From Oscillospiraceae bacterium (GTDB lineage: Bacteria; Bacillota; Clostridia; Oscillospirales; SIG627): a DNA stretch of 64,000 nucleotides. The translations under genes and the position numbers were made by a program. Where the stretch lies: the NCBI GenBank assembly GCA_015063605.1, contig SVTV01000008.1, positions 5,038 to 69,037 of the forward strand, read 5' to 3'. Below the pieces are notes generated by a model, which made no database searches, was not told the origin of the DNA, and saw nothing but the letters and a program-made list of their open reading frames with translations. Shown in pieces: positions 2,894 through 61,530 of the stretch; positions within the stretch are counted from its first letter, which is position 1, and every line of letters begins with the position of its first letter.

Positions 2894-3693
2894 TGCTTAC
2901 AAATTACCATACACATACGACCTTTTGCGACGGAAAGAATACCCCCGAAGAGGTGGCGGAGTCCGCTGGCGAAAAGGGCTTTGATGCTCTCGGATTTTCA
3001 GGTCATGCGGGCTCTCCCTACAGCAGCTACGGTATAAAGGATATGAGAGGATATATTACCGCTGTGAAGGAGTTGAAGGAAAAATATAAAGGAAAGCTTC
3101 AGATATATCTTGGCGTAGAAGAGGATATGTATGCTCCAGTAAACAGGGATGATTACGAATACCTCATCGGTTCTGCACACTATATATTCAAGAACGGCGT
3201 ATACTATCCCCTTGATTCAACAAATGAACGCTTGATGAAATGCGTTTCGGAATGTTTTGACAATGATGCGGTGAAGCTTGCCGAATCGTATTATTCGAGC
3301 TTTTGCGACTACATTTTCAAAAGGCGTCCCGATATTGTAGGTCATTTCGATCTGATAACCAAATTTGACGAAAAAAATGGAGGACTCTTTTCGGAAAACA
3401 GAGAGTATCTTTCCGTTGCGAAAAAGTATATGGAAAAAGCAGCCTCGTCGGGATGTCTATTCGAGGTGAATACGGGTGCAATATCAAGAGGATATGCTAC
3501 GACACCTTATCCCCGTGAAGAGCTTCTTTACGTTTTGAAAAAATGCGGCGGAGATGTTATCCTGTCATCGGATTCCCACAGCAGGGATACTCTTGATTGC
3601 TTTTTCGATGAAACAAAAAAGCTTCTCCGCTTTGCGGGATTTGAATATACTTACATTTTATATGACGGAAGCTTTATCCGTGACAGCTTATAA
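2893..3693 (+). CDS. PHP-family histidinol-phosphatase (HisJ/HisK-like)
   Basis: N-terminal YHTHTTFCDGK metal-binding motif and a later SDSH motif are typical of the PHP histidinol phosphatase family. The start overlaps the mfd stop by 1 nt. Confidence 0.8.
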   Translation: MLTNYHTHTTFCDGKNTPEEVAESAGEKGFDALGFSGHAGSPYSSYGIKDMRGYITAVKELKEKYKGKLQIYLGVEEDMYAPVNRDDYEYLIGSAHYIFKNGVYYPLDSTNERLMKCVSECFDNDAVKLAESYYSSFCDYIFKRRPDIVGHFDLITKFDEKNGGLFSENREYLSVAKKYMEKAASSGCLFEVNTGAISRGYATTPYPREELLYVLKKCGGDVILSSDSHSRDTLDCFFDETKKLLRFAGFEYTYILYDGSFIRDSL

Positions 3694-4970: not shown

Positions 4971-5878
4971 TATTCAGTGAGCTTTACTCCGCATATTACA
5001 ATACAATCGCCGCAATGATCTCAAAAATTATCGACGGCGAAAACTCCGACGAGGAGCTTCGGAGGGTAGTGGAGGAAAGAGCATTCGGAGAAAGTATACT
5101 TACTGTCATACCTTCTCTGAAGGCGGGAAAGTGGCAGCTTGTTCATCCCGATATGACCACCTCTCTCGTTCATAAGCCTACTATGCCCTTGACCGTTCTT
5201 CAGAAGCAATGGCTGAAGGCTGTGTCTCTTGATCCGAGAATAAAGCTTTTTGATATTTCTTTTCCCGATCTCGGTGATACGGAGCCTCTTTTTACTCCGG
5301 ATGATTATTACATATACGATAAGTACAGTGACGGAGACCCCTTTGAGGATGAAGAGTATATAAGGCAGTTCAGAGTTATTCTTGAGGCAATACGTAAAAA
5401 AACGCAGATAAGGTTTGAAATGGTGAACCGCAAGGGAAATACCGTATTCGTAAGATGCTATCCCAAAAGGCTTGAGTATTCCGAAAAGGATGATAAGTTC
5501 AGAGTGGTAACATCGGGCTGGCGATCTGTTTCAAGTGTAAATCTGTCGAAAATAAGAGCTTGCTTCCCGTATTTGGGCGAAAAGACCTTGGATAAGGATA
5601 TGCGTGAGACAGAGTACGATACCGCCGTCTTAAGAATTGATGATGAAAGAAATGCTCTTGAAAGAGTCATGCTTCATTTTGCCCATTTTGAGAAGCAGGC
5701 GGAAAAGATCGACGATAAAACTTACGTATTGAAAATAAAATACGCTCATGATGATGAGACGGAAATTGTGATACGTGTTCTTTCCTTCGGCCCCAGAGTA
5801 AAGGTCTTGGGCTCGGAATCATTTAAGGAAGCTGTAATTGAAAAAATAAGAAAACAGAAAAACTGCGGACTCAAATAA
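4967..5878 (+). CDS. WYL-domain-like putative regulator, partner B
   Basis: ATGA stop/start overlap with the upstream gene. The N-terminus MIFSELYSAYYNTIAAMI is typical of Firmicute paired WYL proteins. A WYL-like core is present (VFVRCYPKRLEYSEKDDKFRVVTSGWRSVSSVNLSKI). Confidence 0.55.
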   Translation: MIFSELYSAYYNTIAAMISKIIDGENSDEELRRVVEERAFGESILTVIPSLKAGKWQLVHPDMTTSLVHKPTMPLTVLQKQWLKAVSLDPRIKLFDISFPDLGDTEPLFTPDDYYIYDKYSDGDPFEDEEYIRQFRVILEAIRKKTQIRFEMVNRKGNTVFVRCYPKRLEYSEKDDKFRVVTSGWRSVSSVNLSKIRACFPYLGEKTLDKDMRETEYDTAVLRIDDERNALERVMLHFAHFEKQAEKIDDKTYVLKIKYAHDDETEIVIRVLSFGPRVKVLGSESFKEAVIEKIRKQKNCGLK

Positions 5879-6495: not shown

Positions 6496-7953
6496 ATGTT
6501 AGAATACTTAAAGAAAGAAGATAATAAGACCGTTACCGAAAACGGCGCTTCAACATACATATCGACAGAGTCGGAATGTCTCGACCTGTTCGCAACCATC
6601 GGTGCCTTGCGCCGTGAAAGCGACAACGAAATAGAAACACGCTTTATACGTGCGTTCAGCGAAAACAGAGATATCGCGATGAAGCTCCTGTTTTTCGCAA
6701 GAGATATCAGAGGAGGTCTCGGCGAGCGCCGTGTGTTCAAGGTGATCCTTAATTGGCTTGCAAAGAACGAGCCTCAAACGGTACGTAAAAACATAGAATA
6801 CGTTGCCGAGTACGGAAGATTTGACGATCTTCTCGTTCTCATGGGTACTTCCTTGGAAAAGGATATGCTCGATGCTTTGAAAAAGCAGTTTCAAGCCGAT
6901 ACGGAAGCCCTTGAAAAGGGCGGAGAAGTATCGCTTCTCGGAAAGTGGCTGCCCTCGGTGAACGCATCAAACAAAACAACAGTTAAATATGCTAAAAGAA
7001 TAGCAAAGCACTTCGGTATGAATGAAGCAAGCTACAGAAAGGCACTTGTTGCCCTTCGCAGCCGCATCAGAATAATCGAAAATAATCTCCGTGAGAAGGA
7101 TTATACCTTTGACTACTCAAAGCAACCCTCAAAGGCTATGCTCAAATACCGTAAGGCATTTGCCCGTAACGATGCCGAAAGATACAGAGCATTTCTTGAT
7201 AAGGTGCTTTCGGGTGAAGCGAAGCTCAATACAGGCACATTGATGCCTTATGAGCTTATCAGACCCATTATCCGCGGGAACGCGGGCGAGGAGGAAAGAA
7301 AGGCTTTGAACGCTTCCTGGATATCTCAGGAGGATCTCGGCAGCGGTGAAAATTCCCTTGCCGTGATCGACGGCTCCGGCTCAATGTACGGCTGGGGCGA
7401 GCCTATGCCCGCAACGGTGGCTCTTTCCCTCGGCATCTACTTTGCCGAGAGAAACAAAGGTGCTTTCGGAAATCACTTCATCACCTTCTCGGAGAATCCC
7501 CGTCTCGTTGAAATAAAGGGAGAAGACATTTTCGAAAAGGTGCGCTATTGCGCTTCCTTCAACGAAATAGCAAACACAAATATTCAAAAGGTGTTTGAGC
7601 TTATCCTTGATACGGCAAAAAAGAATTCCGTACCCGATGAAGAGCTTCCCCGTAAGCTTTACATCATTTCCGATATGGAATTTGACAGCTGTGCCGAGGA
7701 TGCCTCGATGACAAATTTTGAATATGCAAAGAAGATCTTTGCGGAAGCGGGATACACTCTTCCCGAGATCGTTTTCTGGAACGTGGCAAGCCGTAACAGG
7801 CAGCAGCCCGTAACAAAGAATGAGCAGGGTGTTGCCCTTGTATCCGGATGTACTCCCCGTCTGTTCACCATGGCGGCAAACGGCACGATGGAGCCTTATG
7901 CATTTATGCTTGAGGTCATCGAGAGCGAGAGATACGCAAAGATAACCGCATGA
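6496..7953 (+). CDS. Ro60-like TROVE/vWA protein of the DUF2828 type
   Basis: The N-terminal motif TVTENGASTYISTESECLDLF and GKWLPS match my recollection of DUF2828/TROVE-like proteins. The C-terminal vWA domain has the MIDAS motif VIDGSGSM. ATG 6496 with RBS AAAGGAG 8 nt upstream is preferred over the listed GTG 6487. Confidence 0.7.
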   Translation: MLEYLKKEDNKTVTENGASTYISTESECLDLFATIGALRRESDNEIETRFIRAFSENRDIAMKLLFFARDIRGGLGERRVFKVILNWLAKNEPQTVRKNIEYVAEYGRFDDLLVLMGTSLEKDMLDALKKQFQADTEALEKGGEVSLLGKWLPSVNASNKTTVKYAKRIAKHFGMNEASYRKALVALRSRIRIIENNLREKDYTFDYSKQPSKAMLKYRKAFARNDAERYRAFLDKVLSGEAKLNTGTLMPYELIRPIIRGNAGEEERKALNASWISQEDLGSGENSLAVIDGSGSMYGWGEPMPATVALSLGIYFAERNKGAFGNHFITFSENPRLVEIKGEDIFEKVRYCASFNEIANTNIQKVFELILDTAKKNSVPDEELPRKLYIISDMEFDSCAEDASMTNFEYAKKIFAEAGYTLPEIVFWNVASRNRQQPVTKNEQGVALVSGCTPRLFTMAANGTMEPYAFMLEVIESERYAKITA

Positions 7954-48750: not shown

Positions 48751-49956
48751 ATGATGTACAGAATAATTTCCGCAATAGCAGGGTATTACCGTTTTTTTGT
48801 AAACGGAAGAGCCGCTGAACGGGTACTGAACAGATTGATGACAATAAATGCGGATATTTTCGATATAGAGAGAATAAACGAAAATGAAATAACCTTCAGT
48901 GCGGGAGTAATACATTACAAAAAAATAAAGCATGTACTTGACGAAATGCGGAGTGTGGGAATAAAATACCGAACTGTTCTCAGGGGATTTCCCGAAGTTC
49001 TTTACAGATACAGAAAGAGAACGGGTCTTGTTATCGGAATTTTTTTGTCATGTGCTTTGATCTGGGCTTCAAGTCTGTTTATTTGGACTGTTGAGATCAG
49101 AGGTCTCGTTTCAGTAACTGACGAAACAATGAGAGAAATGCTTTCGGATGCGGGACTTTATGAGGGCAAAAGGATATCCGATATAAATTTTGATGATATT
49201 AGATTTGAATTGATAAACAGATATCCCGAAATATCCTATGCAACATTCTTTATATCGGGTACTCATGCTCTTGTCAGTATCAGTGAGAGAGCCTTTCCTC
49301 CCGATACATCGAAAAATAACGATCCCTATAACCTTGTGGCAAAGTGCGACGGTGTTATAGTGGATTCCGCCGTTTCAGACGGTATGACTATGGTAAAGTC
49401 GGGAGAGTTCGTCAGAAAAGGCGACCTTCTCGTAAGCGGAATCGTGGAATTGCAGACCACGGCTTATAAGACGGTTCATGCAAAAGGCAGCGTCTTTGCG
49501 AAAACGGTCCATGAATTTTCCGTAACCGTTCCCTTTGAATCTCATGAAAAGGTATATACAGGTAATGAAGCTGTGAAAAGAAGGCTTGAGATACTTGACT
49601 TTTCCGTTCCTCTTTATTTATCTTCCGATTGCGGCTTTGGAAAGTATGAGGCTTATAAAAGAACGGAGAATGTCATTCTCTTTGATCTTATCCGTCTTCC
49701 CTTCAGATTGACCGAAACAAGCTTCGCGGAATACAAAACTCCGCTTATTTATCTTACACCCGAAAAAGCCGAAAACAAAGCTTACGATATGTATAAAGAG
49801 TATATAAAAAACGAGCTTTCCGAAAGGGAGATCGTCAAGGAGGAGATATCGGTAAACGAAGAAGAAAAGGGTATCACATTCAAAGCCGTTATATGGTGCA
49901 TAGAGGACATTGCCGAGGAAAAGGCGTTTCTGTCCGAGGAATATGATGAACCATGA
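48751..49956 (+). CDS. yqfD: sporulation protein YqfD
   Basis: About 400 aa with an N-terminal YRF.V.G...ERVLN pattern and a central TM helix. It lies immediately downstream of yqfC. Confidence 0.85.
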   Translation: MMYRIISAIAGYYRFFVNGRAAERVLNRLMTINADIFDIERINENEITFSAGVIHYKKIKHVLDEMRSVGIKYRTVLRGFPEVLYRYRKRTGLVIGIFLSCALIWASSLFIWTVEIRGLVSVTDETMREMLSDAGLYEGKRISDINFDDIRFELINRYPEISYATFFISGTHALVSISERAFPPDTSKNNDPYNLVAKCDGVIVDSAVSDGMTMVKSGEFVRKGDLLVSGIVELQTTAYKTVHAKGSVFAKTVHEFSVTVPFESHEKVYTGNEAVKRRLEILDFSVPLYLSSDCGFGKYEAYKRTENVILFDLIRLPFRLTETSFAEYKTPLIYLTPEKAENKAYDMYKEYIKNELSEREIVKEEISVNEEEKGITFKAVIWCIEDIAEEKAFLSEEYDEP

Positions 49957-49988
49957 GAAGCTTGCTTTCAATAATTGAATAAAGAATT

Positions 49989-50016
49989 AAGGCGCTCCGT
50001 CACCACGGGGCGCCTT
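49989..50016. terminator. hairpin between convergent yqfD and oxidoreductase genes
   Basis: AAGGCGCTCCGT-cacc-ACGGGGCGCCTT (12 bp, one G-U pair). A U-rich tract is present only on the minus-strand side. Confidence 0.6.
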
Positions 50017-50041
50017 GTGATACTATCTGAAAAGCCTTTTA

Positions 50042-51181
50042 TTATTCGGGAAGAACTATCTCTATTTCTCTGCCTGCTTCTGCGGACTTTACGATACCGT
50101 CGATTATTGCCTGGTTGTAAAGTATCTGAGAAACGGGAACGGGAGAGGGTGTTCCGTTCTTGCATGCATCTAAGAAGGAGCGTATCTTCTGATCGAAGAG
50201 ACCGGGACCTCTGTTCTGGATTATCGGTATGGTAGTGGATGTCTGAACGCCTGCAACGTCGTGGTAAATGGTCATGGGACCGCCTACAGAGCCGTTCCAG
50301 CAGTCTGTGGAAGGAATGCGGAGAGCACCCTTTGTACCGAAGATGATGGTGTCGCCGGGGGTGTCAACATGCATAGCCCAAGAGATACGGAAGTCGAGGA
50401 TTATGCCGCCCTCAAGACGGATGAATGCCGCCGCGAAATCGTCAACATTGAAGCGTGCCGCATCTGCGGGGTTATTGTACATGGGGTTCGTTCCGAAGAA
50501 GGAGCTTGTATATCCGGAAACGGTAAGGGGCTTGGGATAACCGATCGCATTGAGGACCATATCGAGAGAATAGCATCCGATATCGCCGAGAGCACCGATT
50601 CCCGCAGTCTTCTTTTCGATGAATGTGCTGTTGGGAATACCTCTTCTTCTGCCGCCGCCCGTCTGGATGTAGTATATCTGACCGAGCTCACCGGATTCAA
50701 CGATCTTTTTTATCATCTTCATATTGGGATCGAATCTGGGCTGGAAGCCTATGGAAAGTACCTTGCCGCTTTCCTTTTCGGCTTTTGCGATTTCGATCGC
50801 TTCTTCAGTTGTAACGCAGAGAGGCTTTTCGAGAAGAACGTTTACGCCTTTTTGAAGAGCGTATATCGTGCACTCCGCATGAGTCGCATTGTATGTACAT
50901 ACGCTTACCGCATCAAGCTCTTCGTTGTCGAGCATTTCCTTGTGGGAAGGGTAGAACTTAACACCCTTGACTCCGTATCTTTCCATGAAAGCCTCGGCTT
51001 TTCCGGGAATAAGGTCGGCTGCCGCAACTATCTCCACATCGTTGAATTTCTTATAGGAATCGATATGGGATTCCGCTATCCAACCTGTTCCTATAATACC
51101 TACCTTAAGCTTTTCGCCCTTGAAGGGGGAGAAAACCTCTTTGATCTCTTGTTTGAATTGGCTGAGAACGCTGTCTGACAT
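50042..51181 (-). CDS. Gfo/Idh/MocA-family oxidoreductase
   Basis: N-terminal Rossmann KVGIIGTGWIA and an EKP motif (LLEKPL). Confidence 0.85.
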   Translation of the reverse strand: MSDSVLSQFKQEIKEVFSPFKGEKLKVGIIGTGWIAESHIDSYKKFNDVEIVAAADLIPGKAEAFMERYGVKGVKFYPSHKEMLDNEELDAVSVCTYNATHAECTIYALQKGVNVLLEKPLCVTTEEAIEIAKAEKESGKVLSIGFQPRFDPNMKMIKKIVESGELGQIYYIQTGGGRRRGIPNSTFIEKKTAGIGALGDIGCYSLDMVLNAIGYPKPLTVSGYTSSFFGTNPMYNNPADAARFNVDDFAAAFIRLEGGIILDFRISWAMHVDTPGDTIIFGTKGALRIPSTDCWNGSVGGPMTIYHDVAGVQTSTTIPIIQNRGPGLFDQKIRSFLDACKNGTPSPVPVSQILYNQAIIDGIVKSAEAGREIEIVLPE

Positions 51182-51199
51182 GATTTTTCTCCTTTTTGT

Positions 51200-52024
51200 T
51201 TATTTGTATATTTCTCTTATGTAATCAATACTGCTCTTTACGCATTCCGAGGGTGTCTTTCCGGGAGTGGGCTTATCCTGTTCGACTATAAGCCACTTTG
51301 TGCCCGCATTTTCCGAAGCCTTTATCAATGCTTCGATGTTCTGGCATCCGTTTCCGCATGAACGGAATTCGAATGTTGAAGTTTCCTTCTTCTCCGTCTT
51401 AATGCCTATAAGCTCGTACATGCTGCCGGAGTCCTTATCGGATGATTTGAAGTAATCCTTGAGATGTACTATGGGAGCGCGTCCCGAATACTTATTGATG
51501 TACTCCGCCGGATCTTCACCCGCTACTCTTACCCAGCAGGTGTCAAGCTCTGTTTTGAGAAGCTCCTCGGAAACGGTGCGGTACATATAATCGAGACCGT
51601 ATTCGCCGTTTACCTTTTTGAATTCGAAATCGTGATTGTGATAGAGAAGAGTGATACCCTTTGCCTTGAAGCTTTCACCTAATTTGCCTATAAGCTCAAC
51701 TGCCTCGAAAAACTTCTCACCGCCGGGACGGTATTCTTCTGTCATGTAGGGAACGACAGCATATTTGAGTCCCAAGGCGAGACATTCATCAATAACGCCT
51801 TCCGTGTTATTTACAAGGTCCGCAAAGGGAATATGAGCCGATACGAGGGAAAGTCCGATGGAATCGGCATATTTTTTTATTTCAACGGGAGAATTTCCGA
51901 AAAGTCCTGCAAATTCAACGCCGTCGTATCCCATTTCTTTAACGAGCTTCAGCGTGCCGAAAAAATCAGCCTGAGCTTCGTTTCTTAGGGAATAAAGCTG
52001 TAATCCTACGGGTATTTTGCTCAT
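51200..52024 (-). CDS. sugar phosphate isomerase/epimerase (xylose-isomerase-like TIM barrel)
   Basis: About 274 aa with the GYDGVEF and HNHDFEF patterns of the AP-endonuclease-2/TIM-barrel family. Confidence 0.8.
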   Translation of the reverse strand: MSKIPVGLQLYSLRNEAQADFFGTLKLVKEMGYDGVEFAGLFGNSPVEIKKYADSIGLSLVSAHIPFADLVNNTEGVIDECLALGLKYAVVPYMTEEYRPGGEKFFEAVELIGKLGESFKAKGITLLYHNHDFEFKKVNGEYGLDYMYRTVSEELLKTELDTCWVRVAGEDPAEYINKYSGRAPIVHLKDYFKSSDKDSGSMYELIGIKTEKKETSTFEFRSCGNGCQNIEALIKASENAGTKWLIVEQDKPTPGKTPSECVKSSIDYIREIYK

Positions 52025-52171
52025 GAGTCTGTATCCTTTCTTGAACGATGGGTTTTAAAAAACTGAAATTTCGCTATCTTGATTATAATATTATATTGGA
52101 AAAATGTCAAGAGAAATTATAAAATATTCCTTGAAATTACATAACGCGAAACTGCTTTCTGCAGTAATTAT

Positions 52172-52336
52172 TTATTTTTGTGATTCTTTTCCGCTTTGCC
52201 TTTTCTTCATCCTCCGCCAGCTTACAAAGCCGTAAATGTCATTTACCAAAAAAGCGGCAAAGCATACTGTGATTGCCGTCACCGACAGCGTCCACAGGAT
52301 AATGTCAAGAGTAGAAAAATACTGTTTGATTTTCAT
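52172..52336 (-). CDS. 54-aa single-TM ORF (not in the supplied track), possibly a transporter C-terminal remnant
   Basis: My own translation is MKIKQYFSTLDIILWTLSVTAITVCFAAFLVNDIYGFVSWRRMKKRQSGKESQK. The tail NDIYGFVSWRR resembles PnuC-type C-termini from memory only. I found no convincing RBS. Confidence 0.25.
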   Translation of the reverse strand: MKIKQYFSTLDIILWTLSVTAITVCFAAFLVNDIYGFVSWRRMKKRQSGKESQK

Positions 52337-52558
52337 TTGTTTGTATGTGCCTTTCCGAAAATCTCAATGGGAAAACCCGCCCAAAAAATAAACATTCGTG
52401 TACATATCTTCTGAGACCTAACGATATGCATACGAATGTTTTACCATTCCACTACTCGGTAGCAGTTTATCTGTATATGAATGTTGCGGTAATTATAGCA
52501 TAAAAACGGGAAAAAGCAATATGGAAAGTGATAAGAAAGATCGGAGAGGTGTTAAAAG

Positions 52559-52700
52559 GTGTACTTTTTGACAGTTAATTTCCTTGTCTAATTATAACAC
52601 TAAAATATATAAAATGCAAGGCTTTTTTAGAAAAAAGTTAACAGAATATGAATTTACTTGTTATCTATTCCCTTGAAATGGCTTTTGTCAAAAAGTACAC
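52559..52700. repeat. 15-bp perfect inverted repeat pair flanking 112 bp, upstream of the SPFH/TIR operon
   Basis: GTGTACTTTTTGACA (52559-52573) and its exact reverse complement TGTCAAAAAGTACAC (52686-52700). Confidence 0.8.
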
Positions 52701-52739
52701 TTATTGAAAATAGTCATACCTGTAAGGAGAATATGTATC

Positions 52740-54149
52740 ATGTCGAAAATTGCCGATATAATCAAATACGAGGGCGATAACAGCACCTTTATATGGAAAC
52801 ATCCTTGTGAGGATTTCAACACATTGACACAGCTTATCGTTCATGAAAGTCAGGAAGCTGTATTCTTTCTCAATGGAGAAGCCCTTGATCTTTTCGGACC
52901 GGGAAGGCATACTCTCGAAACTCAAAACATACCAAAACTTGGAAAACTTTTCAATAAAATTATAGGAGATGATACGCCTTTTCATTGCGAAGTTTATTTT
53001 ATTAATAAAACCGTGCAAATGGCTATTAAATGGGGCACAGATTCAAAAGTGCGTTTCGTAGAACCTATTTACGGTATACCTTTGGAAATAGGCGCATGCG
53101 GTGAGATGAATTTAGAGGTTTCGGATTCACGTAAGTTATTATTGAAGCTTGTGGGTACAATGAACGGTATTGCATGGGACGATTATGGAGCAGGTTTTAC
53201 AAAATCCCTTCAAAATTCTTTTCGTCCTCTTATTTCTACTGCTGTAAAATCAAATCTTCCGAGTGCCATAAAATCCAATAACATAGATGTTATTGAAATT
53301 GATGAGAAACTAGAGTTGCTTTCGGAAACAATGCGAAGAAGCATTGTAAATGGCTTTGAGGAATACGGTCTTACAATACCTCAATTCTACATTACCGGTA
53401 TTGCCCTTCCCGAGAACGATCCTAATTTCAAAAAAATGAAGGAGTTACATGCCGTATCATTCCAGACGAGAATGATACAAGCGGAAGCTTTTGTTAAATC
53501 CGCACAAGCCGATGCCGATGCGGATGTTACGGCAGCAAGACGAAAGGTTGAGATGGAACGCCAGCTTACTGAAACAGAAGTGAAAAAACGTGAAGCCGAA
53601 CGTGAGTTGATCAAAGCGCAAACGGAAGCGCAAGCCGTAAAGATGGCAGGTCTTGCCGAAGCTGAAGTAATGCGGGCAAAGGGCTACGATCAGAAAGACG
53701 TTATTACAGCCGAGGTTCAAAAGGCATATGCGGAAGGTATTGGCAACATGACTATCAGCGGAAGCGGCGGCGGAGTTGCCGGTGATATGATAGGATTGAG
53801 TGTGGGAATGGCTGCCGCAGGCGTAGTTGCTCCCAAGCTCGGTGAAATGTTTGCCGGCTCAACCGGTGCAACACCGAATACATCTTCCGAAGCGCCCGCG
53901 GCGGAAGCCAAATGCTCAAAATGCGGTGCGGTATTGCCGAAAAATGCAAAATTCTGTCTTGAGTGCGGTGAAAAGGTCGCTCCCAAAATACCGGAAGGTA
54001 TGGTTATCTGCCCCGAATGCGGTAAAACAGTATCAAAGGGTAAATTCTGTCCCGAGTGCGGACACAAGTTTATAACAGCTTGCCCGAAATGCGGAAAAGA
54101 ACTTATTCCGGGTGCAAAATTCTGCCTTGAATGCGGCGAAAAGCTTTGA
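52740..54149 (+). CDS. SPFH-domain protein (YdjI/COG4260-like) with three C-terminal zinc ribbons
   Basis: The N-terminus MSKIADIIKYEGDNSTFIWKHP...LIVHESQEAVFFLNGE is typical of the SPFH Band_7_1 type. It has an Ala/Glu-rich coiled coil. Three CxxC...CxxC ribbons follow (CSKCG..CLECG, CPECG..CPECG, CPKCG..CLECG). The RBS AAGGAGA lies 9 nt upstream of ATG 52740. Confidence 0.8.
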   Translation: MSKIADIIKYEGDNSTFIWKHPCEDFNTLTQLIVHESQEAVFFLNGEALDLFGPGRHTLETQNIPKLGKLFNKIIGDDTPFHCEVYFINKTVQMAIKWGTDSKVRFVEPIYGIPLEIGACGEMNLEVSDSRKLLLKLVGTMNGIAWDDYGAGFTKSLQNSFRPLISTAVKSNLPSAIKSNNIDVIEIDEKLELLSETMRRSIVNGFEEYGLTIPQFYITGIALPENDPNFKKMKELHAVSFQTRMIQAEAFVKSAQADADADVTAARRKVEMERQLTETEVKKREAERELIKAQTEAQAVKMAGLAEAEVMRAKGYDQKDVITAEVQKAYAEGIGNMTISGSGGGVAGDMIGLSVGMAAAGVVAPKLGEMFAGSTGATPNTSSEAPAAEAKCSKCGAVLPKNAKFCLECGEKVAPKIPEGMVICPECGKTVSKGKFCPECGHKFITACPKCGKELIPGAKFCLECGEKL

Positions 54150-54165
54150 TCGGAGGTTGTGAAAA

Positions 54166-54864
54166 ATGACAAAGGTATTTAAAAACTATTTAATAATTTG
54201 GGTTGTTTTATTGATAATATTCAATGTTGTTTCCTTTGTGTCGGTCGGTTGGACGGGACAGGAAAAATACACACCGTCATTTTGGATAGGTTATGCATTT
54301 ATTACACTTACATTTATCGGTCAGATAGTATGTGCATATTTTGCGTTGAAAAACGTAGATATTAAGAAAACATTTTATAACATTCCCCTTTTTGAAACAA
54401 GTTGCAAGGGGGTCATTCTTACCTTTGTTGTCGGCGGTCTTTGTATGCTTATATCGCCTCTTCCGTATTGGATCGGAATAATAGGTTGCTCAATCATCCT
54501 GCTTTTCAATATAATCTCAGTTGTTAAAGCATTCGCTACTGTTGATATCGTAAGCGGGTTGGATTCGAAATTAAGAACGCAAACTTTTTTCACAAAATCA
54601 TTAACAATTGATGCAGATACACTTATGGCGAGTGCAAAATCCGACTCTGTCAAGACAGAATGCAGAAAAGTATATGAGGCTATTCGATATTCAGATCCCA
54701 TGAGCAATGGTGCTCTTGCATCGGTTGAAACCCAAATAACGCTGAAATTTGCCGAGCTTTCCGAAGCTGTTAAAGCGGATAATATAGAAGCGGTAACAAC
54801 ACTCGCAAACGAGGTTTGTATATTGGTCGCGGACAGAAATAAGAAATGTAAAATGTTGAAGTGA
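54166..54864 (+). CDS. 4-TM membrane protein with C-terminal helical cytoplasmic domain, unknown family
   Basis: Four hydrophobic helices fall in aa 8-125, followed by a soluble tail (...VYEAIRYSDPMSNGALASVETQI...). The RBS GGAGG lies 9 nt upstream, and the gene starts 16 nt after the SPFH stop. Confidence 0.6.
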   Translation: MTKVFKNYLIIWVVLLIIFNVVSFVSVGWTGQEKYTPSFWIGYAFITLTFIGQIVCAYFALKNVDIKKTFYNIPLFETSCKGVILTFVVGGLCMLISPLPYWIGIIGCSIILLFNIISVVKAFATVDIVSGLDSKLRTQTFFTKSLTIDADTLMASAKSDSVKTECRKVYEAIRYSDPMSNGALASVETQITLKFAELSEAVKADNIEAVTTLANEVCILVADRNKKCKMLK

Positions 54865-54874
54865 GATTTTTGTT

Positions 54875-57373
54875 ATGTCAATCCTTTTTAAATGTAAAAT
54901 GTGCAACGGTAACCTTGAAATAGCAGAAGGTATCACCGTTACGGAATGTGATTATTGCGGTACAAAGCAAACAGTACCGAAAGCTATTGATGAAAATTTG
55001 CAAAATCTTTTCAATAGAGCCAATACTCTGCGTATCAAGAGCGAATTTGACAAAGCGGAAGAGCTTTATGAAAAGATAGTACAAGCAGATACAACGCAAT
55101 CGGAAGCGTATTGGGGGCTTATCCTCTGCAAATACGGTATAGAATACGTGGATGATCCCGCAACATTCAAAAAGATCCCCACATGCCATAGGGCTTCATA
55201 TGAATCAATAATTGCCGATGATGATTACAAATCGGCACTTGAAAACGCCGATTTAAGTCAGCGTGCCGTTTATGAGGAACAAGCAAAGGAGATCGACAGA
55301 ATACAAAAGGAAATCCTTGCTCTTGCACAAAAAGAAGAAACTTACGATGTATTTATCTGCTACAAGGAGACGGATTCCGACGGTCACAGAACGCAGGACA
55401 GCGTAATTGCAAACGATATTTATTATCAGCTTACAAATGAAGGATTCAAAGTTTTCTATGCCGCAATAACTCTTGAAGGAAAGTTAGGTTCAGCTTATGA
55501 ACCTATCATCTTTGCTGCGCTCAATTCCGCAAAGGTAATGCTTTCCATTGGTACAAAGCCAGAATATTTCAACGCTGTTTGGGTCAAAAACGAATGGTCA
55601 AGATATTTGAAGATAATCAAGAATGACCGTTCAAAGCTTCTTATTCCGTGCTACCGCGATATGGATGCATATGAGCTTCCCGAAGAGTTTGCACATCTCC
55701 AAGCGCAGGATATGGCGAAGATAGGTTTTGTCAATGATATTATTCGCGGTATCAAAAAGGTAATTAAATCCGATGAACCGAAAGCAACAGTAATTAAGGA
55801 AACGGTTGTTTCCGAAAGCAATACCAACACCGCACCCCTTTTGAAGCGCGCCTTCATGTTCCTTGAAGACGGAGAGTTTGATAAGGCAGATGATTTCTGC
55901 GAGCAGGTCCTCAACCAAGACCCGGAATGTGCCGAGGCATATTTGGGTAAATTGATGGCAGAGCTGAATGTAAAAGCAAGAGAATCTCTTAAAAACTGCA
56001 GTGAGCCTTTTGACAGTAAAAACAATTATTCAAAGGCTATGCGCTTCGGAAATGAAGCCTTGAAAAAAGAGCTTGAAGCGTGCATTGAGCATATCAAAGC
56101 AAGAAACGAAAATAAGCGAATAGAAGGAATATACAACGCCGCAGTCAAAGCAATGAATTCCGCAAAAAGTATGTCAGATTATAGAAAAGCAATATCGTTA
56201 TTTTCTGAGATAGATTATAAGGATTCAAAGGACTTGAGAGAGAAATGTATTTCGGAGATGCAAGAATTTTCAATTAAAAAGAAAGAATTGTCAAAAATTA
56301 TTGAAAAAATCCAGATTAAAAATTCTCAAATAAGTATTTCTGCCGGAACGGATTTTTCAGTGGGGTTGTTATCCAATGGGAGAGTTGTCACGAACTTTGA
56401 TACAGGGCTGTATTCTCGCGAGCGCGACTTTTCGAAGTGGTCGCAAATAATTGCTATTTCCACGTATTATCATACTGTGGGATTGAGATTGGATGGAATG
56501 GTTGTTGCTCATGGTTTGAACTGCTACGGTGAATGTTACGTTATGGGATGGACAGATATTGTTTCTGTTTCTGCGGGCGAAAGACATACAGTTGGATTGA
56601 AATCAGATGGAACTGTTATTGCAACAAAATATCTTGATGGCAATGGTTATGGCTACGACGGTCAATGTGATGTTTCAGAGTGGTCGGATATTATTGCTGT
56701 TTCTGCAGGGAGTCATCACACGGTAGGTTTGATTTATAACGGAAGAGTAATAGCTGTTGGTGGGAATAATTTTAGACAATGTAATGTTTTGAGATGGTCG
56801 GATATTATGGCTGTATCTGCTGGTAGCTATCACACCGTAGGATTAAAAACCGATGGAACGGTTGTTGCTGTTGGTAGAAACGAAAACGGTCAATGTAATG
56901 TTAACGGATGGTCGGATATTATTGCTGTATCTGCAGGAGGAAATCATACCGTAGGATTGAAAGCCGATGGAACGGTTGTTGCCGTTGGAGGGAACGAATG
57001 CGAGCAATGCGAAGTGAGCGAGTGGGCTAATATTGTTGCTGTATCTGCAGGAGGAGGTCATACCGTAGGGTTGAAATCTGATGGTACGGTTATTGCTGTT
57101 GGTAGAAACGAAAGGAGGCAATGCGAAGTGAGCGAGTGGGCTAATATTGCGCTTCCGATTAAAGCAGAAACAAGAGCTGAATATATATCCATGAGATATG
57201 AAATCATGAAACGGAGCCTGCAAAAGCAACAAAGAATGCAAGAGCAGCAAAGAATGCAAGAGCAGCAAAGAATGCAGTATAGAAACGCAGGCGTGTGTCA
57301 GTATTGTGGCGGTAGGTTTAAAGGCATGTTTTCTAAAATTTGTGTAAAATGCGGCAAAAAGAAAGATTATTAA
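54875..57373 (+). CDS. multidomain protein: N-terminal zinc ribbon, TPR-like helices, TIR-like domain, TPR-like linker, seven RCC1-like beta-propeller blades, Q-rich repeat, C-terminal zinc ribbon
   Basis: The N-terminal ribbon is CKMC..CDYC (aa 7-28). The TIR-like core is YDVFICYKETD...AVWVKNEWSRY (aa ~156-295; nt ~55340-55759). Seven repeats of (W)SDI(I)AVSAG..HTVGLK.DGTV.AVG span aa ~487-758. QQRMQE occurs 3 times. The final ribbon is CQYC..CVKC. Confidence 0.75.
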   Translation: MSILFKCKMCNGNLEIAEGITVTECDYCGTKQTVPKAIDENLQNLFNRANTLRIKSEFDKAEELYEKIVQADTTQSEAYWGLILCKYGIEYVDDPATFKKIPTCHRASYESIIADDDYKSALENADLSQRAVYEEQAKEIDRIQKEILALAQKEETYDVFICYKETDSDGHRTQDSVIANDIYYQLTNEGFKVFYAAITLEGKLGSAYEPIIFAALNSAKVMLSIGTKPEYFNAVWVKNEWSRYLKIIKNDRSKLLIPCYRDMDAYELPEEFAHLQAQDMAKIGFVNDIIRGIKKVIKSDEPKATVIKETVVSESNTNTAPLLKRAFMFLEDGEFDKADDFCEQVLNQDPECAEAYLGKLMAELNVKARESLKNCSEPFDSKNNYSKAMRFGNEALKKELEACIEHIKARNENKRIEGIYNAAVKAMNSAKSMSDYRKAISLFSEIDYKDSKDLREKCISEMQEFSIKKKELSKIIEKIQIKNSQISISAGTDFSVGLLSNGRVVTNFDTGLYSRERDFSKWSQIIAISTYYHTVGLRLDGMVVAHGLNCYGECYVMGWTDIVSVSAGERHTVGLKSDGTVIATKYLDGNGYGYDGQCDVSEWSDIIAVSAGSHHTVGLIYNGRVIAVGGNNFRQCNVLRWSDIMAVSAGSYHTVGLKTDGTVVAVGRNENGQCNVNGWSDIIAVSAGGNHTVGLKADGTVVAVGGNECEQCEVSEWANIVAVSAGGGHTVGLKSDGTVIAVGRNERRQCEVSEWANIALPIKAETRAEYISMRYEIMKRSLQKQQRMQEQQRMQEQQRMQYRNAGVCQYCGGRFKGMFSKICVKCGKKKDY

Positions 57374-57396
57374 TAATTTACATAGTTTAACAACGC

Positions 57397-57447
57397 AAAA
57401 GACTTGTACCAGATAACTCAACTGAAAAGTACAAGTCTTTTCTTTTA
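57397..57447 (+). terminator. rho-independent terminator after the TIR/RCC1 gene
   Basis: AAAAGACTTGTAC...GTACAAGTCTTTT stem followed by a TCTTTT run. Confidence 0.85.
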
Positions 57448-57577
57448 TTCAAATATTATAAAACCTTTTTTACATATTCATTTCAATATATCGGACAAGT
57501 CATCCAAATCAACTGTAGGCAGTTTAATGGAATCGCTTTCAATGAACATAAGCATATAAACAGGATTTGCTGCGATT

Positions 57578-57650
57578 ATGACATTTATGCAATATCTTAC
57601 AAGAAGAAAATGACATTTATTCCGATTGAAAAACGGCAAAAATGACATTT
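57578..57650 (+). repeat. three phased direct repeats ATGACATTT (32-bp spacing)
   Basis: Copies lie at 57578-57586, 57610-57618 and 57642-57650. Confidence 0.6.
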
Positions 57651-57735
57651 TTGAGATTTTCATTAAATAGATACAAATTTTATTTTCCCTCAAAAGCAAA
57701 AATCTGTGATCAACGAAGGAATTCGGAATTTTATC

Positions 57736-57764
57736 TTGACACGCATCGTAAAATGTTATATAAT
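57736..57764 (+). promoter_or_regulatory. consensus sigma-A promoter for the glutamine synthetase gene
   Basis: TTGACA, 17 nt spacer, TATAAT. Confidence 0.6.
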
Positions 57765-57840
57765 AAATATGTGATCATATACGGTGGGGAATTGTCACCG
57801 TTATGATGCGAATGTTTAATTTTAAGGATGTATAAATTTT

Positions 57841-59940
57841 ATGGATATATCGTCTGTTTTCGGTTCATTGGTTTTTAATGATGACGTAATGCGGGAGCGT
57901 TTGCCCGCAGAGGTCTATGAGGAGTTTCACGCTTGTGTAGATCAAAGACGTTCTCTCGATGTAAATACCGCCAATGTTATAGCTTCCGCAATGAAGGATT
58001 GGGCAATAGAGCATGGTGCGACCCACTATACCCATTGGTTCCAGCCTATGACGGGATATACTGCCGAAAAGCATGACAGCTTCATAAGCCCCGATAAAAA
58101 CGGAAAGGCGATAATGGAATTTTCCGGCAAGCAGCTTATAAAGGGCGAGCCCGATGCCTCCTCATTTCCGTCGGGCGGTCTCAGAGCCACATTCGAGGCA
58201 AGAGGATATACCAATTGGGATCCCACATCCTACGCATTTATAAAAGAAAATACATTGTGCGTTCCCACCGCATTCTGTTCCTACAGCGGTGAAGCGCTTG
58301 ACAAGAAAACACCTCTTCTCCGTTCCATGGAGGCTATCCATGATGCGGTAGTGGAGATCATGGATATATTGGGTATCAGATGCGATTCCGTGGAGACCAC
58401 GATAGGTCCCGAGCAGGAATATTTCCTTGTGGACAGAGCCGCCTTCAAAAAGCGCCGCGACTTGATATTTACGGGCAGAACGCTTTTCGGTGCCGCACCT
58501 CCCAAGGGTCAGGAATTGGGCGACCATTACTTCGGCGCCATACGTCCCCGTGTTCTCCAATTCATGAGAGCCCTTGACGATGAACTGTGGAAGCTGGGCG
58601 TTTTTGCAAAAACGGAGCACAATGAGGGCGCACCTTCCCAGCATGAGCTTGCTCCCGTGTTTACTACGGCAAACGTTGCGGTAGACCACAACCAGATGAT
58701 AATGGAAATGATGAAAAAGATAGCGGCTAAATTCGAGCTTGCATGTCTTCTTCATGAAAAGCCCTATGCCGGTGTCAACGGCTCGGGTAAGCACGTCAAT
58801 TGGTCTGTCGGAATAAACAATGAAGGAAGCCTTTTCAAGGCAGGGGATAACCCCCGTGAAAATACGATCTTCCTGCTTTTCTCCTGTGCCGTTATAGCCG
58901 CAGTTGACGAAAATCAGGATCTTCTCAGAATATCGTGCGCCGGTGCGGGTAACGATCACCGTCTCGGCGGTCATGAAGCACCTCCCGCCATAATCAGTAT
59001 ATATATTGGAAACGATCTTGAAAATATATATGAGGCTCTTGCGGGAAATGCGGATTATGTAAAGTATAAGAGGGAGCAGATGGAGACGGGCGTTCACGTA
59101 TTGCCTCAGTTCAAGAAGGACACCGCCGACAGAAACAGAACGAGTCCCTTTGCCTTTACGGGCAATAAATTCGAATTCCGTATGCCGGGCTCATCCTTCT
59201 CGGTATCCGATGCGGGTACGGTTCTCAATGCCATAATGGCAGATAAGCTGAGAGAATACAGTTCAAAGCTTCGCGGCATTCCTCAGGGCGAAAAGATGAA
59301 GGAAGCTGTAGAAAAGCTTATCGGCGAGGAATACAATAAGCACAGAAGGATCGTTTTCAACGGAAACAACTATTCCGAGGAATGGGTAAAGACTGCGGAG
59401 GAAAGAGGACTTCTCAATCTTCCCTCAACTGCGGACGCTCTTCCTTATCTTGTAAGCGAAAAGAATATTGCTCTTTATAAGCGTCAGGGTATATTCAGTG
59501 AAAACGAGCTTCATTCCCATCTTGAAATATATTACGAAAACTATTGCAAGACCGTATCCATCGAGGCTGCAACGATGATATCTATGGCGAAAAGGGAAAT
59601 AATTCCCGCTATAGAAAGGTACATCGGCGAGCTTTGCAGAACAGGCAAGGCAAAGAAGGAGCTTTCCGACGATATCTGCTGCGCTTATGAGAAGAAGGTC
59701 GTGACAAGACTTGCTTCCGATGTTGCGGATGCCGACGGATTTCTGGACGAGCTTGAAGAGGCCTTGGCAGATGCAAAGCTTCTCATGGCTTCCGACGCCT
59801 ACGGTGCGGTCAGGGCTTTCAGGGATAAGGTCATCCCTGTAATGGAAAAACTCAGAAAGGTATGCGATGACGCGGAAACGCTTGTTTCCAAGGAATATTG
59901 GCCTTTCCCCACATACGGAGAGCTTTTGTTCAGCTTTTGA
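57841..59940 (+). CDS. glnN: type III glutamine synthetase
   Basis: 699 aa, the size class of GS type III. It has the N-terminal GSIII-like region (THYTHWFQPMTG) and catalytic-domain motifs (GPEQEYFL, NGSGKHVNWS, APSQHE). Confidence 0.9.
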   Translation: MDISSVFGSLVFNDDVMRERLPAEVYEEFHACVDQRRSLDVNTANVIASAMKDWAIEHGATHYTHWFQPMTGYTAEKHDSFISPDKNGKAIMEFSGKQLIKGEPDASSFPSGGLRATFEARGYTNWDPTSYAFIKENTLCVPTAFCSYSGEALDKKTPLLRSMEAIHDAVVEIMDILGIRCDSVETTIGPEQEYFLVDRAAFKKRRDLIFTGRTLFGAAPPKGQELGDHYFGAIRPRVLQFMRALDDELWKLGVFAKTEHNEGAPSQHELAPVFTTANVAVDHNQMIMEMMKKIAAKFELACLLHEKPYAGVNGSGKHVNWSVGINNEGSLFKAGDNPRENTIFLLFSCAVIAAVDENQDLLRISCAGAGNDHRLGGHEAPPAIISIYIGNDLENIYEALAGNADYVKYKREQMETGVHVLPQFKKDTADRNRTSPFAFTGNKFEFRMPGSSFSVSDAGTVLNAIMADKLREYSSKLRGIPQGEKMKEAVEKLIGEEYNKHRRIVFNGNNYSEEWVKTAEERGLLNLPSTADALPYLVSEKNIALYKRQGIFSENELHSHLEIYYENYCKTVSIEAATMISMAKREIIPAIERYIGELCRTGKAKKELSDDICCAYEKKVVTRLASDVADADGFLDELEEALADAKLLMASDAYGAVRAFRDKVIPVMEKLRKVCDDAETLVSKEYWPFPTYGELLFSF

Positions 59941-59973
59941 TAATTTTATCGCGTCATCATCGGAAATATAAAT

Positions 59974-60726
59974 ATGGCGGAAAATCTTCATGCACATCAC
60001 CGTTCAAGATTGAAGGCGAGATTTCTCAAGGAGGGTCTTGAGAATTTTGAGAAGCATAATATTCTTGAATTACTGTTGTTTTTTGGTATCCCTTATATGG
60101 ATACGAATGAGATAGCCCATGTGCTCCTCGACAGATTCGGTAGTATTTCAGGGGTATGTGATGCCCCTTACAGCGAGCTTATAACCGTAAAGGGGATAAA
60201 GGAGAATTCCGCAACTCTGCTGAAGCTTATTCCCGAGCTTGCGAGAGTTTACTGTGAAGAAAAGTACAATGTGGATCCGTTGAAATTTTCATACGGAATG
60301 CTCGGTGAGTATTTCGTCGCAAAATTTCTCGGAATAAATAAGGAGCATGTCCTTGCGGCGTTTTTTGATAACGATCTTAATCTGATAACCATCGAGACGA
60401 TCTATGAGGGCGATGTGAATTCCTCCTTGCTTCCCATGAGGAAGCTTGCACAGCTTGTGATCTCCACAAATGCTTCGGCTGTGGTTCTTGCACATAATCA
60501 TCTTTCGGGTGTACATATAGCATCGAATGATGATATGGAGACAACCGGCAGAGTTCTCGATTTTCTCAATGAAATGAGAGTTACTCTTCTCGACCATTTT
60601 ATCGTGGCAAAGGATCACTACGGAAGTATCATGCCCGATAATTACAAGGAAAAGTATGAAAAGGCTGTGGCTTTGGAGGCTGAAAGCAAAAAGAGGAGAA
60701 AGAAAGAGAAAAGCAGTTTGAGATAA
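59974..60726 (+). CDS. radC: RadC-like JAB-domain protein (UPF0758)
   Basis: N-terminal HhH region (HHRSRLKARFLKEGLENF..ELLELLLFF) and JAMM-like HNHLSG. Confidence 0.85.
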   Translation: MAENLHAHHRSRLKARFLKEGLENFEKHNILELLLFFGIPYMDTNEIAHVLLDRFGSISGVCDAPYSELITVKGIKENSATLLKLIPELARVYCEEKYNVDPLKFSYGMLGEYFVAKFLGINKEHVLAAFFDNDLNLITIETIYEGDVNSSLLPMRKLAQLVISTNASAVVLAHNHLSGVHIASNDDMETTGRVLDFLNEMRVTLLDHFIVAKDHYGSIMPDNYKEKYEKAVALEAESKKRRKKEKSSLR

Positions 60727-60828
60727 ATGCTTTTTTGATAAAGGTTTTATTTTGGTTTTAAGATCGGTTTTTGCATCATGCATTAACCGATTTTTCTCCC
60801 CAAAATGCGGAAAAAGAGGTGAAACACT

Positions 60829-61530
60829 ATGAAAATAAGCGGAATACAAAAATTGACTCTCCTTGATTTTCCCGGGAGAACGGCGTGCACCGTTTTTCTT
60901 TCGGGTTGTAATATGCGTTGTCCCTTCTGTCATAATTCCGATCTTGTATTCGGAAAGGCGCCGCAGATATCCTCTGATGAGCTTTATTCACTTCTTGAAA
61001 AGAGAAGAGGCGTTCTTGACGGCGTATGTATAACCGGCGGTGAACCACTTCTGTACGAAAATACGGAGGAGCTTATAAGAGAGATCAAGAGACGCGGTTT
61101 TCTTGTAAAGCTTGACACAAACGGAACAAAGCCGGAACTGCTTGAAAAATTATTGAATAACAAATTATTGGATTATGTCGCTATGGACATAAAAAGCTCC
61201 CCCGAGGGATATGCTAATGCTGTAGGTATAGAGAATTTCGATATGACTCCGATCCGCCGCAGCATCGATCTTCTGAAAAACAGCGGTATCGAATATGAAT
61301 TCAGGACTACAGCCGTAAAACAGCTCCACGGAGAAAAGGAATTCAAGGGGATAGCAGATCTTGTAAAGGGCGCAGATAAATTTTTTATCCAGAAATTCAA
61401 GGATTCGGGAAATATTCTCGGTCACTTCACGGGTAAGATGCTGTTTATGGATCCTCCCGGAGAGGAAGATATAAGGCTCTTTTCGGATATAGTATCCGAG
61501 GTCGTTTCCTTCGTCGGAATAAGAGGCTGA
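60829..61530 (+). CDS. nrdG: anaerobic ribonucleoside-triphosphate reductase activating protein (radical SAM)
   Basis: The CNMRCPFCHN radical-SAM cluster motif lies near the N-terminus, and the size is ~233 aa. Confidence 0.9.
   Translation: MKISGIQKLTLLDFPGRTACTVFLSGCNMRCPFCHNSDLVFGKAPQISSDELYSLLEKRRGVLDGVCITGGEPLLYENTEELIREIKRRGFLVKLDTNGTKPELLEKLLNNKLLDYVAMDIKSSPEGYANAVGIENFDMTPIRRSIDLLKNSGIEYEFRTTAVKQLHGEKEFKGIADLVKGADKFFIQKFKDSGNILGHFTGKMLFMDPPGEEDIRLFSDIVSEVVSFVGIRG

Follow-up and report, generated by a model that had tools for sequence, protein, structure and literature searches.

TIR enzymes play a central part in the immunity of bacteria, plants and animals and, to our knowledge, every characterised bacterial TIR system senses intracellularly and is partnered with cyclases, Argonautes, ThsA or STING/SAVED proteins. 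In the PspA-SamGHI (YdjGHI) system of Bacillus subtilis, the SPFH protein SamI lacks a membrane anchor, reaches the membrane through recruitment by SamG/SamH and in turn restrains SamH (PMC13713150, PMC8581546, PMC9239133). Here, we describe a three-gene operon encoding a SamI-like SPFH protein (gene 1), a protein with four transmembrane (TM) helices (gene 2) and a TIR-RCC1 protein (gene 3), located in a 64,000-nucleotide stretch of DNA from an Oscillospiraceae bacterium (hereafter the window; positions 5,038 to 69,037, forward strand, of contig SVTV01000008.1, GenBank assembly GCA_015063605.1). Comparison across genomes indicates that the trio is a copy of a very widespread, unnamed cassette family of gut and rumen Clostridia, in which the TIR module is tied instead to a putative SPFH (flotillin-like) scaffold and a dedicated membrane protein and, in most relatives, also to a predicted extracellular, interchangeable binding domain that is sometimes hypermutated by a diversity-generating retroelement (DGR). 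We propose, with a probability of roughly 0.45, that the operon encodes a sensor scaffolded at the membrane whose output is a TIR NADase and whose role lies in conflict or defence.

The operon shares several features with PspA-SamGHI. Gene 1 resembles SamI in its architecture (a soluble protein of the Band_7_1 SPFH type that lacks a membrane anchor and carries a low-complexity linker and a C-terminal zinc finger), the SPFH gene likewise adjoins one or more genes for integral membrane proteins, and in both systems a partner bears a zinc ribbon in the cytosol (SamG in B. subtilis, gene 3 in the window). The two differ in that gene 2 has neither a SamH-type TPM domain nor a match to any Pfam family, that the third partner here is a TIR module with a variable sensor, and that the cassette is accessory and patchy rather than a sigma-W stress operon. 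PspA (PF04012) was not found in the operon or in the genome (96% complete), nor was it among the families that recur in the flanks of related cassettes, and identity as a PspA-linked envelope-stress operon was rejected on these grounds. With the bacterial TIR immune systems (Thoeris ThsB, TIR-STING and TIR-SAVED CBASS, SPARTA TIR-APAZ and AbTir), gene 3 shares the TIR fold, the Glu in WxxxE, the joining of TIR to repeat or sensor domains and the accessory nature of the genes. However, its partner genes encode SPFH and 4-TM proteins and not ThsA, a cyclase, an Argonaute, STING or SAVED, and most members of the cassette family are predicted to place the sensor outside the cell. For the operon and ten flanking proteins, Pfam gave no SIR2, SLOG or Macro domain of a ThsA-type effector and PADLOC gave no Thoeris match, and the NCBIfam ThcB4 model scored 21.4 bits, far under its cut-off of 220. 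Because no partner was present and no PADLOC model matched, identity as Thoeris, CBASS, Pycsar or SPARTA was ruled out. A secreted, host-directed Tcp-like TIR effector was also rejected, as gene 3 has no signal peptide and carries zinc ribbons at both ends.

Further parallels lie in overall design. The DGR-diversified 'antigen sensors' of multicellular bacteria (STAND/VMAP; PMC10907252, PMC7159879) follow the same logic of a variable sensor joined to a TIR effector, and loci related to the one in the window, though not the window's own, carry a DGR-targeted C-type lectin at the C-terminus of the TIR protein. They differ in that no STAND/MoxR NTPase, vWA or adaptor domains are present here, where the SPFH/4-TM core replaces the NTPase, and in that the cassette hosts are unicellular gut Clostridia; the window's copy ends in RCC1 repeats, with no DGR and no variable repeat (VR). 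Like animal Toll-like receptors, the majority of the family joins a repeat or lectin domain outside the cell (including leucine-rich repeats (LRRs)) through a single TM helix to a TIR domain in the cytosol. However, the TIR domain is N-terminal, giving a type II orientation and a reversed domain order, the whole architecture bears no sign of common descent, the TIR domain of the cassette is probably an enzyme and the window's copy has no TM helix. The likeness to NLR/STAND sensors is one of analogy only, as their central NTPase is not present in the cassette (Pfam gave no NACHT or NB-ARC STAND domain in the three operon proteins). The literature that we searched, whose coverage was incomplete so that an earlier mention is possible, contained no link of SPFH proteins with TIR and no account of the cassette, which is very widespread and apparently undescribed; the operon itself is real and well delimited.

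Conservation of the cassette across genomes

To place the operon in a wider context, we took a census of one genome per genus, in which carriers were grouped into bands of falling likeness and random places in the same genomes served as the control. The N-terminal zinc ribbon (ZnR)-TPR-TIR module of gene 3 was found in 291 genera (most of them Clostridia, the others Bacilli_A or scattered members of further phyla) and homologues of gene 2 in 177 genera. By falling likeness, a Band_7_1 gene lay within 5 kb of the TIR module in 69 of 99, 24 of 45, 9 of 36 and 9 of 108 carrier genera (random places, fewer than 3), and the TIR module lay within 5 kb of gene-2 homologues in 6 of 6, 24 of 33, 24 of 45 and 36 of 90 genera (random places, again fewer than 3). 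At the level of single loci, open reading frames (ORFs) were called on genome contigs for 78 species loci and scored with the window's proteins. The genes were always on one strand and in one order (SPFH, a gene 2 of ~232 amino acids (aa), then one to five TIR-module genes), with a gap between the SPFH gene and gene 2 of -61 to 26 nt. The arrangement seen in the window (co-oriented SPFH, ~232-aa 4-TM and ZnR-TPR-TIR genes) also occurred in L002, L005, L008, L020, L028 and many other loci. In 33 loci, the contig extended 2.5 kb or more to either side; of these, 19 had both SPFH and gene 2, 3 had SPFH only and 11 had neither. For gene 3 itself, the TPR-TIR-RCC1 make-up was represented by at least 8,000 clusters at 90% identity.

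Among 30 relatives searched (a same-genus genome of 98% completeness, 17 genomes from the family and 12 from the order), none yielded the TIR module apart from two distant TIR-only matches. Integrases accounted for 7 of the 118 genes immediately flanking cassettes, and a few flanking genes matched PADLOC candidate systems. Judged from these comparisons, the cassette is accessory and patchy and the family is horizontally mobile. An empty site was sought in the same-genus genome, which has glnN at 68% identity but no synteny around it.

A metagenomic relative showed the same neighbourhood as the window with a different cassette content: in L003:3603-8475, a TM-type TIR-RCC1 gene directly follows glnN, with RadC nearby and without SPFH or gene 2. 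In four animal-faeces metagenomes, matches to 49000-61000 were short, low-depth contigs, none of which spanned the cassette. Contigs from these metagenomes joined window position 57374 to 54885 or 54887 after 23-25 nt (a gene-3-like end to the next start), and related strains therefore carry tandem TIR-module paralogues.

Protein architecture, topology and variable ends

Gene 3 is made up of an N-terminal zinc ribbon (aa 7-28), TPR-like helices, the TIR domain (aa 159-281), TPRs (aa ~320-470), an RCC1 propeller (aa ~488-775), a coiled coil with three QEQQRM repeats and a C-terminal zinc ribbon (aa 808-826), with no predicted TM helix. Pfam assigned TIR_2 (PF13676; 37.7 bits against a cut-off of 28), RCC1_2 (152.7 bits) and TPRs on both sides of the TIR domain; the propeller is predicted from the sequence, in which seven [ST]VG[LI] blades can be counted (aa 495-730). 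Residues 1-470 were modelled with AlphaFold2 from a 25-sequence alignment (model m983358aba5b5; predicted local distance difference test (pLDDT) 78), and a Foldseek search of this model against the PDB matched AbTir (7uxu) with a probability of 1.0, a TMt of 0.75 and a root-mean-square deviation of 3.8 over 144 columns, as well as SARM1, RUN1/RPV1, RPS4, L7 and SPARTA TIR-APAZ, each also at probability 1.0. A PDB sequence search with the same residues returned only designed TPR proteins. In a profile of the TIR region, E240 aligned with the Glu of the flax L6/L7 'WCLMEL' motif, of a Toll-like receptor TIR and of Brucella TcpB/BtpA, a residue that we take to be the catalytic one of TIR NADases; the WxxxE spacing is common to AbTir-type cyclases. 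E240, W236 and W241 were invariant in the 25-sequence alignment, and Glu occupied position 240 in 222 of 237 carrier genera. The TIR assignment of gene 3 thus stands on profile, fold and catalytic-type Glu, and we infer an NADase or cyclase activity, as a near-invariant catalytic-type Glu argues for an enzyme rather than an adaptor. The first ~460 residues, at 50-75% identity across homologues, were the most conserved part of the protein.

Five further TIR_2 proteins are encoded in the same genome (2.67 Mb): one TIR-MORN protein, three TIR-Sel1-TPR_12/TPR_10 proteins (701-887 aa) and one of 375 aa (the five loci being L092:1960-3021(-), L093:1562-4222(-), L094:1595-3760(-), L095:2083-3207(+) and L096:1733-3835(-)). 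Searches with tblastn revealed no SPFH or gene-2 neighbours for any of them.

Gene 1 carries Band_7_1 (122.7 bits), a coiled-coil, Ala/Glu-rich stretch, a Gly/Ala low-complexity linker and three CxxC...CxxC ribbons spanned by DZR (62.7 bits) and Zn_ribbon models. No hydrophobic or TM helix was predicted, so that the protein combines the Band_7_1 domain, the lack of a TM helix and the C-terminal zinc ribbons that define SamI/YdjI-type (COG4260-like) proteins. SPFH partners across cassettes terminate either in zinc ribbons, as in the window, or in a SHOCT-like tail. A PDB sequence search with gene 1 gave no useful match, and a predicted complex of genes 1 and 2 scored 0.00, which yields no verdict and was not used as evidence either way.

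In gene 2, helix prediction revealed four hydrophobic helices, and an AlphaFold model (pLDDT 84) placed four TM helices, the last of which extends into a helical bundle in the cytosol (aa ~130-232) that is modelled with confidence. This bundle is highly conserved, and S176-D177-P178, E188, R224 and K232 are invariant. The family of gene 2 comprises 4,603 representatives at 50% identity and has no Pfam model. Gene 2 had no match in Pfam, NCBIfam or PADLOC, and the ESM Atlas returned only unnamed 'hypothetical protein' clusters. Structural searches with the model were similarly generic (Foldseek, helical bundles only, best E 0.2; VIA-align, a top Z of 10.7 and, for the MLKL four-helix bundle, Z 8.0-8.4, under the helical-protein noise of ~13). 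Among a set of homologues (P0209, P0226, P0182, P0129 and P0243), some carry a Ser/Thr kinase plus zinc ribbon fused at the N-terminus, and in others a fifth TM helix leads to trypsin-like, RCC1 or Flg_new ectodomains. Given these fusions to kinases and to varied ectodomains, gene 2 has the appearance of a general-purpose anchor or transducer at the membrane, to which various outputs and sensors are coupled.

The part of the TIR proteins beyond the TIR-TPR module was markedly variable. For 102 C-termini, Pfam gave DUF6273 (49), RCC1 (22), BspA-type LRR_5 (6), LRR_8 (4), Flg_new and others. Between module and variable domain, 81 of 109 TIR-module proteins had one strong hydrophobic TM helix, with a mean of 6.05 Lys plus Arg in the 15 residues before it and 1.64 in the 15 residues after it (more before than after in 74 of 77 proteins). 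Under the positive-inside rule, this bias places the TIR module in the cytosol and the variable domain outside, and most relatives of gene 3 are therefore predicted to be single-pass membrane proteins with an extracellular variable domain. Among 121 RCC1-type homologues, 103 had the TM helix only, 11 a C-terminal zinc ribbon only, 7 neither and none both; the 11 TM-less, zinc-ribbon proteins include the window's gene 3 and its closest full-length relative (P0007). The window's gene 3 thus belongs to a minority, TM-less form that is probably fully cytosolic. Such forms are intact and recurrent and also lie beside SPFH and gene 2 (L002, L087 and L089), and a single SPFH-gene 2 pair in L089 lies between one TIR-RCC1 gene without a TM helix and one TIR-DUF6273 gene of the TM type. 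The same 102 C-termini also gave some unexpected Pfam matches, to CIDE-N in seven (best E 1.9e-9) and PRTRC_E in five.

DUF6273 is a C-type-lectin-fold domain and a known DGR target (PMC10743442, PMC11792537). In four loci (L032, L037, L046 and L048; Table 1), we found DGR-type repeat pairs of 122-127 bp, one copy of which lies at the 3' end of a TIR gene; 86-100% of mismatches within the pairs fall on template adenines, and the targeted TIR-module genes end in DUF6273. Genes for bAvd adjoin cassettes, as also at L089:11981-12379. On this repeat evidence, some of the TIR-TM-lectin proteins are targets of DGR hypermutation; for the window's copy, no VR/template repeat (TR) pair was found. A variable 'cargo slot' between gene 2 and the TIR gene of relatives holds small genes unrelated to one another, encoding HEPN-like, DUF4365, DUF2971, SIR2_2, HNH_2, Fic or P-loop proteins (for example, at L017:13224-13859, L026:6915-7364, L039:7659-8264, L053:9480-9992 and L032:9108-9995). 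Genes of this kind are typical of defence hotspots.

A preliminary description of this DNA, made from the letters and a list of ORFs, had named the domains correctly. Its YdjI-like SPFH protein with three ribbons, its 4-TM protein, its TIR domain and its seven-bladed RCC1-like propeller were all recovered by the profile, helix, model and Foldseek results above. Its expectation that the three genes would co-occur elsewhere was borne out across many genera, far above random, and its alternative, that the family might track core envelope-stress operons, was not. It had also seen no ThsA, cyclase or Argonaute partner and no named system, in agreement with Pfam and PADLOC. Its picture of an RCC1/TPR sensor coupled to a TIR effector had the domains right, but RCC1 proves to be one of several interchangeable C-terminal domains; it placed the system at the membrane but missed the family-wide single-pass form, of which the window's copy is the TM-less exception; and its comparison with NLR-like proteins holds as an analogy only.

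Proposed mechanism and competing explanations

In the mechanism that we propose, gene 1 would oligomerise into a scaffold, as SPFH proteins are known to do, and gene 2 would hold this scaffold at the membrane, as suggested by their invariant adjacency and by the SamG/SamH-SamI analogy. Gene 3 may dock on the scaffold through its conserved ZnR-TPR module, and binding of a ligand by the variable domain would then cluster the TIR domains and trigger NAD+ cleavage, leading to NAD+ depletion or a nucleotide signal and, in turn, to growth arrest or abortive infection. The window's copy would be an intracellular-sensing form, with a cytosolic RCC1 propeller and zinc ribbon. We read as marks of a conflict system the swapping of C-terminal domains, the one to five TIR paralogues in a locus, the DGR repeat pairs and bAvd genes, the cargo genes, the integrases in the flanks, the 30 relatives in which no cassette was found, the low GC content at third codon positions and the pnuC remnant. 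A broader and more doubtful form of this proposal, which we hold only tentatively, is that the family as a whole is a Toll-like-receptor-like surveillance system (mostly extracellular and in part DGR-hypermutated ligand domains, one TM helix, a TIR enzyme, an SPFH scaffold and a 4-TM holder), with the window's copy as an intracellular-sensing paralogue; in that event, detection of phages or other invaders by gut Clostridia could take place at the cell surface and not in the cytoplasm alone.

Several observations weigh against a role in conflict or defence. The TIR module is absent from phage and plasmid collections (IMG/VR holds two loci only), which lends no support to defence, and PADLOC v2 models match none of the three proteins. 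The flanks in the window are housekeeping genes without defence genes, and the operon is not in a defence island. In gut Firmicutes, adhesins and surface proteins typically have the same ectodomain types as the family (BspA-type LRR, Flg_new, C-type lectin and RCC1_2). The scaffold is not obligatory, as roughly one TIR-module gene in three has neither an SPFH gene nor gene 2 nearby. Finally, the confidence of the model in the TIR domain is moderate (pLDDT about 60-72), and the defence role, the NADase activity and the protein contacts are inferences from sequence and analogy.

With these points in mind, the operon could instead serve membrane signalling outside immunity, as a SamGHI-like sensor of the envelope or environment or as a Toll-receptor-like receptor for non-phage ligands such as host or dietary glycans or neighbouring cells, with the SPFH protein restraining or organising the receptor and the TIR/TPR part acting as an adaptor or regulated enzyme that steers physiology rather than killing. 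The SamI architecture of gene 1, without a TM helix (PMC13713150), the fusion of gene-2 homologues to Ser/Thr kinases (typical signal-transduction outputs), the frequency of lectin, LRR and Flg_new ectodomains in gut bacterial surface proteins and the housekeeping neighbourhood are all consistent with such a role. We consider it the main rival but less likely than the conflict reading, as the 96% complete genome yielded no PspA, the operon has no TPM-domain equivalent of SamH, the near-invariant Glu speaks for an enzyme rather than an adaptor, and the patchy distribution, the DGR targeting and the inserted HEPN, SIR2 and DUF4365 genes fit conflict better. A two-step scheme would keep the immune function and change the effector. 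In type II Thoeris, a TIR product activates a TM effector (see also 10.64898/2026.01.22.701046). By that precedent, the TIR domain here would make a nucleotide signal and the gene 2 bundle would be the signal-activated, membrane-disrupting effector, restrained by the SPFH protein as SamI restrains its membrane partner SamH (PMC13713150). The linkage of gene 2 to the TIR module and the conserved bundle with its invariant SDP, E188 and R224 would suit this scheme, but fold searches with gene 2 found only generic helical bundles (MLKL lying beneath the noise), Macro, SLOG, SAVED and other known domains for binding nucleotides were not found in the operon proteins, PADLOC gave no Thoeris match and ThcB4 was far sub-threshold, and gene 2 also pairs with kinases and proteases, as a general anchor or transducer would; the scheme is improbable.

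Less probable again is that the family consists of surface adhesins or binding proteins, in which ZnR-TPR-TIR merely anchors or sorts, SPFH and gene 2 form an assembly platform and the window's copy is a decaying or regulatory paralogue. The ectodomain repertoire and the DGR-diversified C-type lectins are indeed typical of ligand-binding surface proteins (PMC10743442, PMC11792537). However, the most conserved part of these proteins is the ~460-aa cytosolic module, which retains TIR catalytic-type residues, and the TM-less forms, being intact and recurrent and having a C-terminal zinc ribbon of their own, are unlike products of decay. That three unrelated genes are adjacent by chance is barely credible, given that linkage was far above random in both directions and that order and strand were constant in dozens of species. 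The proposed membrane-scaffolded sensor with TIR output, should it prove to be an immune system, would assign a concrete role to SPFH proteins in bacteria and would possibly be the first case of surface sensing coupled to a bacterial TIR effector; a non-immune receptor system would still be a new bacterial signalling architecture. The family is very large, and the gut and rumen Clostridia that carry it are abundant but have been little studied.

Boundaries and flanking genes of the operon

The three genes form one operon (Table 1), in which, as the preliminary description had reported, co-oriented ORFs are tightly spaced, with gaps of 16 nt (54150-54165) between genes 1 and 2 and 10 nt (54865-54874) between genes 2 and 3. 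Although the ORF of gene 1 is open from 52704, its likeliest start is ATG 52740, because a Shine-Dalgarno sequence (AAGGAG, 52724-52729) lies 10 nt before it and the alignment consensus of homologues begins at the equivalent residue. Candidate promoters (for example, TTGACA-16-AATTAT at 52568-52595, a consensus match only) were near chance in number upstream of the operon (22 matches against a shuffle expectation of 18.6). The strong terminator proposed earlier was recovered as a 13-bp, GC-poor stem (57397-57441) followed by a U-tract, with a folding energy (dG) of -15.6 kcal/mol and a z score of -3.96; none of 200 shuffles folded as well.

Table 1. Coordinates of the operon, its parts and its borders in the window, and of DGR-type repeat pairs in related loci
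Feature	Position	Strand	Description
Gene 1	52740-54149	+	Predicted cytosolic SamI/YdjI-type SPFH protein, Band_7_1 plus three zinc ribbons
Gene 2	54166-54864	+	232 aa, unnamed family, four TM helices
Gene 3	54875-57373	+	832 aa, ZnR-TPR-TIR-TPR-RCC1(7 blades)-ZnR
TIR domain of gene 3	55349-55717	+	TIR_2; Glu240 codon 55592-55594, motif W236-V-K-N-E240-W
RCC1-like seven-bladed propeller of gene 3, presumed ligand-binding module	56336-57199	+	RCC1_2; blade period ~114 nt
Upstream intergenic region	52025-52739	+	GC 0.33; candidate promoters and Shine-Dalgarno
Probable C-terminal PnuC/NMN_transporter remnant, 54-aa ORF, outside operon	52172-52336	-	Sub-cut-off PF04973 match
Intrinsic terminator of operon	57397-57449	+	Folding versus shuffles
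L032 VR/TR pair	12418-12544 / 13111-13237
L037 VR/TR pair	2676-2801 / 3383-3508
L046 VR/TR pair	12422-12543 / 13129-13250
L048 VR/TR pair	6520-6646 / 7213-7339

In base composition, the earlier impression of an AT-rich block was correct in direction but the deviation is mild: the operon has a GC content of 0.409 against 0.432 for the genome (13th percentile of equal-size genome windows), and the GC content at third codon positions of genes 1, 2 and 3 (0.379, 0.348 and 0.369) falls in the 4th-7th percentile of long ORFs (ORF mean 0.469, s.d. 0.058). The AT-richness of the operon is thus real but modest. The intergenic regions have a GC content of 0.33 upstream and 0.287 downstream, which agrees with the long AT-rich upstream region that had been described, except that this region is not empty. 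It holds a 54-aa ORF that aligns to positions 142-175 of the 175 positions of PF04973 (E 3.7e-4; 20.9 bits, cut-off 27.3), and no full pnuC was found in the same genome. This ORF is probably the remnant of a pnuC-type (nicotinamide-riboside transporter) gene at the upstream border, a scar of an earlier rearrangement.

Flank annotation agreed with the placement of the operon between sugar-metabolism genes and glnN, with YqfD, a GFO/IDH/MocA protein and a xylose-isomerase-like TIM barrel on one side and a type III glnN, RadC, a radical-SAM protein and NrdD on the other, all of them housekeeping. Two perfect (12 of 12) sigma-70 promoters (TTGACA-17-TATAAT) bracket the cassette, at 52110-52082 (-) and 57736-57764 (+), and face outward, one into the sugar-gene operon and the other into glnN. 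The leader before glnN (~470 nt, GC 0.287) had no Rfam match, and an Rfam scan of 51900-57900 found no RNA families. Nine of the ten flanking proteins had no match in PADLOC; the tenth, the radical-SAM protein at 60829-61530 (+), upstream of NrdD, gave weak, generic pVip matches only (E 4e-12) and is most likely the NrdG activase rather than a viperin.

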